Assembly: GCF_002854065.1 (NCBI RefSeq)
Contig: NZ_CP024147.1
Reading direction: 5' to 3' (one strand)
Origin: Escherichia coli
GTDB lineage: Bacteria; Pseudomonadota; Gammaproteobacteria; Enterobacterales; Enterobacteriaceae
DNA: 64,000 nucleotides
The notes beneath the pieces are model-generated. The model had not been told where the DNA came from, ran no database searches, and worked only from the letters and a program-made list of their open reading frames with translations. Below, in pieces: positions 46,812 through 49,123 of this stretch (position 1 is the first letter of the stretch; the number at the start of each line of letters is the position of its first letter). Made by a program: the position numbers and the translations under genes.

Positions 46812-48149
46812 ATGAAAATTTACCGCCCACTTTGGGAGGATGGGGCCGCTCTGGCCCCGCAACAGTTCCAGCAGCAGGACCGCTGGAGTGAACACGTTGC
46901 CGACATGGTCGCCCGGATGGGTATTTCTCATCCCTGGGGCGTGGTGGTGGCAGAATTTGATGATGCTGCGCTGGCGCTCTCGCGCCTGAACGCCACCCGT
47001 CTGGTCGTACGTTTCCAGGATGGCACGATTGTTGATACGGATCTGGCGGATAATCTTCCGCCAGTCTGTGATTTATCCGCCGCAAATGGCTCCGAGGCTG
47101 TTGAAGTGGTTGCCGCACTGCCGCTGTTGAGCGCCAGTGGCGGCAATCTGGATAACGGTCAGGAGAGTGAACGTCCACGTCGCTGGAAAACGGAGCGCGT
47201 AGTGGTCCAGGAGCTGGCCGGACACGAAAGTGGTGAACTGGCCATTCTGCGTTACGCCATGACGCTTCGTTTGTCCACGCAGGAAAACACCGCTTATCTG
47301 ACCTGCCCGGTCGCCCGTCTGGTGCGTAATGCGCAAGGGCAGTGGCGTCGCGATCCCTCCTTTATCCCGCCGATGCTCTCGGTTGCAGCAAGCCCCTGGC
47401 TGGTAAGCGAAATGAGTGACCTGCTGGTCCGCTTGCAGGCAAGACGCAAGCGTTTGATGGCGATGCGGCGTGAAAGCAACGAACGGATGGCCGATTTTGC
47501 GGTCGCCGATGTCTCATTATTCTGGCTGCTTAATGCGCTGAACAGCGCCGAGCCGGTGCTCGCTGAATTACTGCAAACACCGGACCGTCACCCTGAGTTG
47601 CTGTACCGCGAACTAACCCGTCTGGCGGGCAGCCTGCTGACCTTCTCACTGGAGCACGACGCAGGCGATATTCCTGCTTATCAGCATGATGCACCGGAGC
47701 GGGTATTCCCACCGTTGCTGGCACTGCTCGACAAGCTGCTGGAAGCGAGCCTGCCGTCGCGGGTGGTGAGTATCCACCTCGAGCATCAGGACCAAATCTG
47801 GAAAGGCGCCCTGCACGATGCGCGCTTGCGTGAAGGGGCTGACTTCTATCTCTCCGTACGTTCATCCATGCCAAACCATGAACTTCAGACGAAATTCCCG
47901 CGGCTGTGTAAAGCGGGCAGCTTTGATGATGTTTCGGATGTGGTGAATGTGGCCCTGAGCGGGATGGTTATCAAACCGCTAACGCATGTTCCGGCCGCTA
48001 TCCCGTTACGCCTTGAGAACCAGTATTTCTCGCTGGATCTGAGTACTGAAGCGGCACGCGCGATGCTTGAGATGGGCAGTTGCACCTTCTATACCCCGCG
48101 CTCACTGGGGGATGTGAATCTTGAACTCTTTGCGGTGCTGCGCTCATGA
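46812..48149 (+). CDS. tssK: T6SS baseplate subunit TssK
   Basis: 445-aa ORF MKIYRPLWEDGAALAPQQFQQQDRW...; typical TssK N-terminal motif and length. Confidence 0.8.
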   Translation: MKIYRPLWEDGAALAPQQFQQQDRWSEHVADMVARMGISHPWGVVVAEFDDAALALSRLNATRLVVRFQDGTIVDTDLADNLPPVCDLSAANGSEAVEVVAALPLLSASGGNLDNGQESERPRRWKTERVVVQELAGHESGELAILRYAMTLRLSTQENTAYLTCPVARLVRNAQGQWRRDPSFIPPMLSVAASPWLVSEMSDLLVRLQARRKRLMAMRRESNERMADFAVADVSLFWLLNALNSAEPVLAELLQTPDRHPELLYRELTRLAGSLLTFSLEHDAGDIPAYQHDAPERVFPPLLALLDKLLEASLPSRVVSIHLEHQDQIWKGALHDARLREGADFYLSVRSSMPNHELQTKFPRLCKAGSFDDVSDVVNVALSGMVIKPLTHVPAAIPLRLENQYFSLDLSTEAARAMLEMGSCTFYTPRSLGDVNLELFAVLRS

Positions 48150-49123
48150 ATAAACCCGAACTCAGCCAGATAGAACGTATCTTCTACCCAGGCTGGCTGA
48201 TGGCCAGCCAGTTGCGGAGCGGCCAGGAAGTTCGCGACGGGGAAGGGCTTTACCGCCGGGCTTGCCGTTTGGTGAAAGAGGCAAAAGCTGCGCTCATGGA
48301 GGCAGGCTACAGCGACATCAGCCGCGACCATATGGTGTATGCCTTGTGTGCGCTGCTTGATGAGAGCGTGATGAACAGGGGCACCACCGATGATGGCTAC
48401 CTGACCTGGCACCGAGACCCGCTACCCGGGAGGTCTGACATGGTGGATAAAACGCAGCATTACCGTAATCACTGGGCACAGTGGACGGTTGCCGAAATTA
48501 CGTTTGTGGAACAACACTATGGTCAGTTGGACGTGCGATTTTCAGGAGAAGCCAGCGAGCAGGGATTAACAACTTTTCTTGATGCTTTTGATGAGTCCAG
48601 TCACTGGGTTTTAGTTGTACCATTATCACCCGGCTTGCTTCCTTTTAAAAAATGCCGGGTAACAACGGCGGAACTGGCGGAAACAACATTACCCGCGTCG
48701 CAAGTGCTGGTGGTTGAAAATGAGCAGTGTTTGCATCATCTTCCAGCATTATCTGACACTATCGCGATTTTAGGCTGTGGCCTGGACGTGCAATGGCTAT
48801 CCAGTTCTGTTCTGGATGAAAAACGCGTTGCCTATTGGGGGGACATGGATAGCTGGGGACTACTGATGCTGGCGAGAGCCAGGCGTTGTCGTCCGACGCT
48901 TGATGCCCTGCATATGAACCGTGAGTTGTTTGAGCAGTATGTCAGTCATAGCGCCGTTCCAGAACCGGTCATAGCGAAGGAAGCTGTACCTGATGGCTTG
49001 CTTAACGAGGAGGCCGATTTTTATCGCTACTTAACCCGTTTACCGCGTGGTCGTCTGGAGCAGGAGTTTTTGCCTGTGGGGATTGCGGAAGAGGTGCTTC
49101 TCAGGTGGGGAAAAGAGAGTTAA
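48146..49123 (+). pseudogene. tssL: chimeric ORF: N-terminal ~95 aa of TssL (DotU domain) fused in frame to unrelated sequence with Toprim-like motifs; no transmembrane anchor
   Basis: Start overlaps tssK stop (ATGA); N-terminus IFYPGWLMASQLRSGQ...YALCALLDESVMNRG is DotU-like; remainder lacks the TssL TM helix and contains VLVVENEQ and YWGDMDSWG. Confidence 0.55.

Follow-up and report, generated by a model that had tools for sequence, protein, structure and literature searches.

An open reading frame that joins parts of tssL and jetD beside pheV in Escherichia coli is very probably a compound pseudogene

The JetABCD proteins of E. coli GF4-3, which form a type I Wadjet system, have been the material for the biochemistry and the cryo-EM of the JET nuclease (10.1101/2022.10.04.510915, 10.1101/2023.11.03.565488). 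In this enzyme, JetABC alone and JetD alone are both inactive, the residues E248, D290, and D292 are the metal ligands of the Toprim domain, and the substitution E248A abolishes restriction and cleavage (10.1101/2022.10.04.510915). The aCAP domains of JetD dock on the JetC heads, where a mutation of the interface abolishes restriction in vivo, and these domains also help to wrap the DNA (10.1101/2023.11.03.565488). JetD dimerises through its Toprim domain, and in the autoinhibited enzyme the cleft for the DNA is blocked by the CAP domains; at artificially high concentration, a JetD homologue is able to cleave DNA alone (PMC10586767). The GF4-3-type Wadjet at pheV, on which the structural work on the JET nuclease is based, is rare in E. 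coli: it is intact at this position in nine of 5,426 complete genomes, with the decayed remnant being at least as frequent.

The locus described here lies in a window of 64 kb, which is the whole stretch of DNA that was analysed. It contains a single open reading frame in which the beginning of tssL, a gene of the type VI secretion system (T6SS), is continuous with the end of jetD. The features to which the text refers are the following.

44717..45213, + strand: tssB pseudogene, one base short in a run of G (G8 to G7, about 44782-44788), from the alignment to tssB of E. coli PapRG-06-5
45246..46793, + strand: tssC (sheath large subunit), intact
46812..48149, + strand: tssK (baseplate), intact, with a stop that overlaps the start of the chimera (ATGA)
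48146..49123, + strand: whole chimeric open reading frame, 325 codons plus stop, 325 aa
48146..48425, + strand: tssL segment (93 codons and 1 nt from the gene start), coding for the N-terminal half of the DotU cytoplasmic domain, from protein identity and nucleotide homology
48423..48425, + strand: microhomology TAC of junction 1, within an imperfect 16-nt repeat (tssL CACCGAGACCCGCTAC; VasL end CAACGAGAC-TGATAC)
48426..48439, + strand: former intergenic DNA from just past the VasL stop, 14 nt, now translated, with a Shine-Dalgarno-like GGGAGG
48440..48526, + strand: codons 1-29 of a small regulator-like ORF (MVDKTQHYRNHWAQWTVAEITFVEQHYGQ), with an internal ATG at 48440 that has its own RBS
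48526..48528, + strand: microhomology GTT of junction 2 (CAGTTG in the small ORF; CTGTTA in jetD), fusion to jetD codon 185
48527..49123, + strand: jetD segment (JetD 185-382 plus stop) with the complete Toprim domain, 195/198 aa identical to intact JetD
48716-48718, 48842-48844, and 48848-48850, + strand: catalytic codons of the jetD segment, E191, D233, and D235, respectively
49124..49483, + strand: native intergenic flank from jetD to pheV, collinear with intact Wadjet loci (homology to the locus L003 over 48526-49700)
49484..49559, - strand: tRNA-Phe (GAA), pheV, followed by yqgA, speC, and nupG

Four independent profile and structure libraries agree that the chimera has two recognisable parts, a TssL-like N-terminus and a JetD-like C-terminus. 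Read from its start, it is composed of TssL 1-93, 14 nt of intergenic DNA, 29 codons of the small ORF, and JetD 185-382. The chimera is very probably a compound pseudogene made from pieces of three genes, that is, a non-functional scar left by deletion. Part of this is already known, given that RefSeq annotates the same DNA as two pseudogene fragments: in the genomes CUWW06 and 100416, PGAP reports a "DotU family protein, incomplete, missing C-terminus" followed by a [quoted passage not shown]. That annotation does not state that the two partial pseudogenes form one continuous open reading frame, nor does it trace the 78 nt that separate them to a stretch of intergenic DNA and to the 5' end of another, third ORF. 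New here are the history of the locus at the resolution of single bases, the third parental segment, and the evidence that constraint has been relaxed; Wadjet, JetD, and the chimera junction are all absent from the paper on the pheV island (PMC11537424).

At the N-terminus, the position of tssL after tssK and the ATGA overlap are kept, with the ATG of the chimera overlapping the tssK stop at 48146-48149. Residues 1-93 are identical (93/93) to the TssL of the sister strain PapRG-06-5 (L006), and the nucleotide homology to tssL stops at 48425. The NCBIfam model TssL_short (NF038239) matches this region over profile positions 1-89 of 207 with 105.8 bits, which falls well below the curated cut-off of 180 bits for the family. 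The Pfam DotU match covers positions 4-84 of a model of 205, and the alignment with the 183-residue cytoplasmic domain of EAEC TssL, a Sci-1-type DotU of the short form (PDB 3U66), pairs residues 1-95 of both proteins. Compared with such a TssL, the chimera has an incomplete DotU domain that is missing its second cytoplasmic half, it diverges after residue 93 and has no C-terminal transmembrane anchor, and the rest of its secretion system has been deleted. The best Kyte-Doolittle window of 19 residues in the chimera reaches 1.32, versus 1.98 for residues 189-207 of intact TssL. An earlier note on this DNA had read the first ~95 residues as the DotU domain of TssL, with a start coupled to the tssK stop and with the membrane anchor missing, and all three points hold, the domain being present as its first half.

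The C-terminal part, residues 128-325, corresponds to JetD 185-382 with about 98% identity. The earlier note had seen the Glu and the DxD hallmark of a Toprim domain in this region, and had suggested that it is the 3' end of a DUF2220/JetD-like (Wadjet) gene. Both proposals are borne out. The motif VLVVENEQ is found at residues 187-194 and WGDMDSWG at residues 231-238, with 42 residues from E191 to D233; E191, D233, and D235 correspond to E248, D290, and D292 of GF4-3 JetD, and VLVVENEQC and WGDMDSWGL are identical in the two proteins. The Pfam search that the note had proposed returned JetD_C, a Toprim profile (PF09983, residues 148-317, model positions 2-178 of 179, E=1.8e-40). The JetD1 profile of PADLOC matched residues 128-324 (profile positions 185-381 of 383, E=9e-100), and in PDB 8Q72 residues 184-382 of chain M, which is E. 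coli GF4-3 JetD(E248A), aligned with residues 127-325 of the chimera (E=4e-128). Like the GF4-3 nuclease (382 aa), the chimera has the complete Toprim domain (JetD_C/DUF2220) with the catalytic Glu and the DxD ligands, and it occupies the same chromosomal position directly upstream of tRNA-Phe (pheV), which begins 360 nt past the chimera in the usual E. coli pheV neighbourhood. Unlike that nuclease, the chimera is without residues 1-184, the N-terminal arm and CAP domains (DUF3322) that bind JetC and DNA, and without the partners JetA, JetB, and JetC. The homology begins at JetD residue 185, and a tblastn search with JetD 1-184 across the 64-kb window gave no match. With respect to intact JetD alleles, the chimera carries the substitutions L256H and A266V. 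A single-sequence AlphaFold2 model of the chimera had a mean pLDDT of 36.8 and a pTM of 0.22, values too low to be informative; the solved structure 8Q72, which is 98% identical to the JetD part, makes a prediction of the chimera unnecessary.

The earlier note had considered all of the remaining ~230 residues to be Toprim-like. This is correct for residues 128-325 but not for residues 94-127 (48426-48525), in which the alignments show no similarity to TssL, JetD, or VasL. This segment of 34 residues has a third origin, namely the spacer downstream of VasL followed by the 5' end of a regulator-like ORF of a mobile element. A nucleotide match of 87.5% to the segment is found at another locus in 59 genomes, such as that of ETEC H10407, where it forms the 5' end of an unannotated ORF of 70 aa. 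This ORF matches phrog_323, a family of transcriptional regulators, with a modest E value (5.7e-6), and scans of it against Pfam and NCBIfam gave nothing significant. The small regulator-like ORF was originally located after the T6SS cluster.

The search for the intact parental gene and its neighbours, which the earlier note had also proposed, led to jetABCD adjoining pheV in GF4-3 and FHI_NMBU_11, where the Wadjet operon is intact and the order is glcA, jetA, jetB, jetC, jetD, and pheV. The parental T6SS is found in PapRG-06-5, which has an intact cluster tssB-tssC-tssK-tssL-tagL-hcp-tssH...vgrG...tssM-tssA-tssF-tssG-tssJ-tssE, with a GIY-YIG remnant and VasL at its end; next come jetD, truncated as in the chimera, and pheV. 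Both breakpoints of the chimera were set to the base by local BLAST and alignments. Junction 1 is the crossover of a deletion of 29,514 bp relative to PapRG-06-5, which begins at tssL codon 93 and ends shortly after the stop codon of VasL. In the alignment, position 13486 of PapRG-06-5 corresponds to window position 48425 and position 43001 to window position 48426; the window tracks tssL up to ...CCGCTAC (48425) and then the sequence that follows the VasL stop in PapRG-06-5 (TGA, TAC, CCGGGAGG...). At junction 2, the homology to intact jetD begins at 48526, with codon 128 of the chimera being JetD codon 185. Ten of the 5,426 complete genomes have junction 2, and two of these ten also have junction 1; this nesting indicates that junction 1 is the younger of the two. 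One carrier of the chimera (L018) keeps an intact TssB of 165 aa, indicating that the frameshift in tssB is later than the deletion.

From these observations we infer the following order of events at the locus. The ancestor would have carried glcA, jetABCD, and pheV, as E. coli GF4-3 does. A tad-fimbrial-T6SS island would then have taken the place of jetABC and of jetD codons 1-184. The right end of the island, which lay inside the small regulator-like ORF, would have been joined to jetD codon 185 at the microhomology of 3 nt. In one lineage, a deletion of 29.5 kb between the imperfect 16-nt repeats in tssL codon 93 and at the end of VasL would have taken tagL, hcp, tssH, vgrG, tssM, tssA, tssF, tssG, tssJ, and tssE, together with others between tssL and VasL, and by chance the remaining tssL codons 1-93 would have ended up in the reading frame of the older jetD fusion. 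The frameshift of tssB and the rearrangement of the left flank by IS1 elements would have come afterwards. The suggestion of the earlier note that the fusion at pheV arose by deletion is, thus, right as to the deletion, although two deletion or recombination events are seen instead of a single one.

Of the T6SS core set there remain in the window tssC, tssK, and the frameshifted tssB, which PGAP also marks as "frameshifted" in CUWW06, and tblastn searches of the 64-kb window with TagL, Hcp, TssH, VgrG, TssM, TssA, TssF, TssG, TssJ, TssE, and VasL gave no match. The other genes of a Wadjet operon (jetA DUF3375, jetB DUF4194, and the SMC ATPase gene jetC) are likewise missing, and GF4-3 jetABC matched nothing in the window, as protein or as DNA. 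Across the complete genomes, jetABC DNA of the GF4-3 type is present in 13, a comparison that covers jetABC down to roughly 85% identity, and CUWW06 and 100416 are not among these 13. Given that half a DotU domain is left without its anchor, and that the Toprim domain is left without the domains that dock on JetC and without JetABC, neither of the parental functions, secretion or plasmid restriction, would be expected of the product, should it be made at all. It is most likely non-functional, and the finding is real but ordinary.

The remnant of jetD differs from an intact allele by 13 synonymous and three nonsynonymous changes (pN/pS 0.07). This low ratio was rejected as a sign of selection, given that the divergence mostly separates two alleles that were once functional and predates the truncation. 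When the differences among seven truncated copies were polarised with the intact alleles, the changes that followed the truncation amounted to one synonymous versus four nonsynonymous codons (D233E, L256H, A266V, and R298H), while the fixed differences between truncated and intact alleles are 11 synonymous and one nonsynonymous (Fisher p=0.004-0.01, with small counts of 5-6 events in the DNA set). D233E, which occurs in a sister truncated allele, hits the catalytic DxD and turns it into ExD. The cluster of proteins at 90% identity adds A178V, S203F, A207V, C211F, and A277T, and it also contains shortened forms of 65 aa and 156 aa. In its JetD-derived residues, the commonest truncated allele differs from the intact JetD of L003 at position 301 alone, where it has R, as GF4-3 does, and L003 has C. 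This pattern of substitutions, small as the counts are, fits a remnant that has been drifting under relaxed constraint since it was truncated.

The possibility that the hybrid has instead acquired a new function has to be considered, as some of its features are compatible with one. The Toprim domain is complete with E191, D233, and D235, the autoinhibitory CAP domains are gone, start signals are present for both the 325-aa product and a 227-aa product beginning at the ATG at 48440, and hundreds of assemblies still carry the remnant; either product could, according to this explanation, be a free Toprim dimer that acts as a stand-alone and possibly deregulated nuclease or that has been co-opted for some other role. 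The homologue that cuts alone at artificially high concentration (PMC10586767) also speaks for it. Nonetheless, JetD of GF4-3 is inactive alone even at full length (10.1101/2022.10.04.510915), and the aCAP domains that wrap DNA are needed in vivo (10.1101/2023.11.03.565488). The changes that followed truncation are mostly nonsynonymous and reach the catalytic Asp, truncated alleles exist, and a representative library of 1.84 billion proteins holds no consistent stand-alone JetD_C family. A natural family of this kind was rejected because nearly all relatives with full coverage are of ~380-400 aa and match from near residue 185, and the short JetD_C relatives examined in that library are JetDs cut at the N-terminus or other fusions. 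A new function is, for these reasons, very improbable. The more specific proposal, that the loss of the CAP domains would have released a dimeric Toprim nuclease, made from the T6SS operon (325 aa) or from the captured RBS and ATG (227 aa) and kept for a benefit independent of JetABC, is slightly less probable still; if it were true, the benefit might be, for example, a low-level anti-plasmid or anti-phage activity.

Two further explanations carry hardly any weight. The open reading frame could be a genuine full-length variant of TssL with a C-terminal extension, comparable to the "evolved" TssL that bears a peptidoglycan-binding extension, and in fact it is coupled to tssK at its start, like a true tssL, and its N-terminus is bona fide TssL. 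This is refuted by the profile match, which ends at position 89 of 207 and falls short of the cut-off, by the absence of a transmembrane segment, by a breakpoint that cuts the cytoplasmic domain about halfway (at residue 95 of the 183 in 3U66), by the same tssL running on normally in sister genomes, and by the ten named T6SS genes that are missing. The junction could also be an artefact of sequencing or assembly, with a chimeric contig made of two unrelated regions, in favour of which nothing was found. Two genomes that were finished independently, one from Thailand and one from the Gambia, share the identical junction. The same protein occurs, without any change, in 253 indexed blocks of public assemblies, isolates and gut metagenomes among them, all of which have the same tssK-chimera-pheV-yqgA-speC context, and this refutes the artefact as well as a mere chance ORF. 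The compound pseudogene is therefore preferred over each of these explanations.

Some observations run counter to the reading as a scar. The reading frame is open and the catalytic E and DxD are intact in the allele of the window, the coupling to tssK and the internal Shine-Dalgarno sequence and ATG at 48440 make translation plausible, and both gene-gene junctions are in frame, for which the chance is 1/9. A scan of 44100-49600 for promoters and terminators gave counts that were not above those of shuffled sequence and has no bearing on expression.

A megablast search of the 5,426 complete genomes found the same arrangement in only two, CUWW06 and 100416. As a case of operon decay by short-homology deletion the chimera is of a textbook kind, and by itself of little importance. 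Public entries call the hybrid a "hypothetical protein" or a "putative type VI secretion protein", and both DotU and JetD_C of Pfam match it, which means that surveys and defence finders could miscount it as a novel fusion of a T6SS with a nuclease or as a Wadjet component. Similar in-frame scars of short-homology deletions at related loci are the TssB-VasL fusion of ETEC H10407, annotated as "tssB", and the TssL-TagL fusion of TB06052, annotated as "tssL"; their breakpoints and partners are different, and they are independent events. The region between glcA and pheV is a hypervariable hotspot in which T6SS and Wadjet operons have collapsed repeatedly and independently. The jetA'-'jetD remnants of MB53, W444, and PT62 are also in-frame hybrids, left by short-homology deletions that gutted Wadjet, with breakpoints that differ from those described here, and they, too, are independent events.

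The first 29 codons of a small, unannotated ORF of the type found in ETEC H10407 gave rise to residues 99-127 of the TssL-JetD chimera. In that strain the ORF lies immediately 3' of a deletion scar.

L007:4512-4982 (NC_017633.1, 4243478-4243924): deletion scar annotated as 'tssB', ETEC H10407
L007:4975-5187: unannotated 70-aa ORF, same strain

The scar, which carries a plain 'tssB' annotation, is an in-frame fusion of TssB residues ~1-115 with the final ~35 residues of VasL, and the fusion point is a common RQ(I)xQLK stretch. Since TssB is joined in frame to the end of VasL, the entire T6SS cluster has been lost from this site by excision. 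The same structure is also found in about 59 complete genomes. The 70-aa ORF matches phrog_323, a transcriptional regulator family (E=5.7e-6), and is followed by PerC and then by an integrase remnant, which suggests that the T6SS was formerly part of a mobile island. From the small ORF the chimera has also inherited a strong Shine-Dalgarno-like GGGAGG, 6 nt 5' of an in-frame ATG at 48440 (both within window 48428-48442). This ATG is often chosen by gene callers, giving a 227-aa form that occurs on hundreds of contigs.

Another hybrid is found in strain TB06052.

L004:20547-21311: 254-aa 'TssL, short form', strain TB06052

Here TssL residues ~1-186 are joined in frame, via a 1.58-kb deletion, to the OmpA-like C-terminus of TagL, and the hybrid continues into DNA 3' of jetD across a further, 28.3-kb deletion, which took out what was left of the T6SS together with the jetD remnant. 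Each of the four gene-gene deletion junctions observed at these loci (window 48425 and 48526, TB06052 and ETEC H10407) is in frame. Because two of them were ascertained through their forming a long ORF, the unbiased sample is 2/2 in frame (p about 0.11), and the excess is not significant, though unexplained.

The Wadjet system from which the jetD portion derives was found in several states of decay at pheV. Its remnants are at least as frequent as intact copies (9 of 5,426 complete genomes).

L011:3093-3713: truncated jetD allele with D233E (protein P0006, on 61 contigs), from strain 32F4 and its relatives

The D233E substitution of the 32F4-type allele converts the DxD motif to ExD at the catalytic D290 of JetD. 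Further remnants at pheV (matches H12, H14, H15, H24, H90, and H91) occur in strains MB53, PT62, LP5-1, and W444, where the first 90 nt of jetA precede the region around jetD codon 185 by ~420 nt, and this jetA'-'jetD scar bears the annotation 'JetD domain-containing protein'. At pheV of LHM10-1 and CP52E (H88, H89), the first 322 nt of jetA are all that survives.

In two intact copies the annotation of jetC is fragmented.

L012:5161-8448 (NZ_CP053258.1): jetC, E. coli GF4-3

RefSeq annotates this gene as two pieces, an 'incomplete ATP-binding protein' of 156 nt and an 'SbcC/MukB-like' CDS of 1,347 nt, separated by an unannotated gap of 1.8 kb; the DNA is a single uninterrupted ORF of 1,095 codons, and the GF4-3 Wadjet is active experimentally. 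The jetC annotation is split likewise in FHI_NMBU_11.

Upstream of the chimera, the window carries a damaged tssB and two copies of IS1.

44717-45213: tssB, with 1 bp lost from a G8 homopolymer at 44782-44788
40651-41419: first IS1 copy, flanked by 28000-40650 and 41419-42058
33556-34323: second IS1 copy, in the tkt-side region, ~99% identical to the first

The 1-bp loss inactivates tssB. Given that TssB is intact, at 165 aa, in one or more further carriers of the chimera (L018), the slip arose later than the chimera and is possibly reversible. The two sides of the first IS1 copy are oppositely oriented when compared with CUWW06, a complete genome with the chimera, which suggests an IS1-associated inversion of ~35 kb around pheV with its other breakpoint beyond the window. 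The second copy is not at the corresponding site in CUWW06 or in 100416, also a complete chimera-bearing genome. The first copy cuts a TcfC-like fimbrial usher gene, of which only the final ~640 bp remain, and connects this remnant with the tkt-loiP-speB region; the same join breaks a lipoprotein gene that lies between speB and speA.
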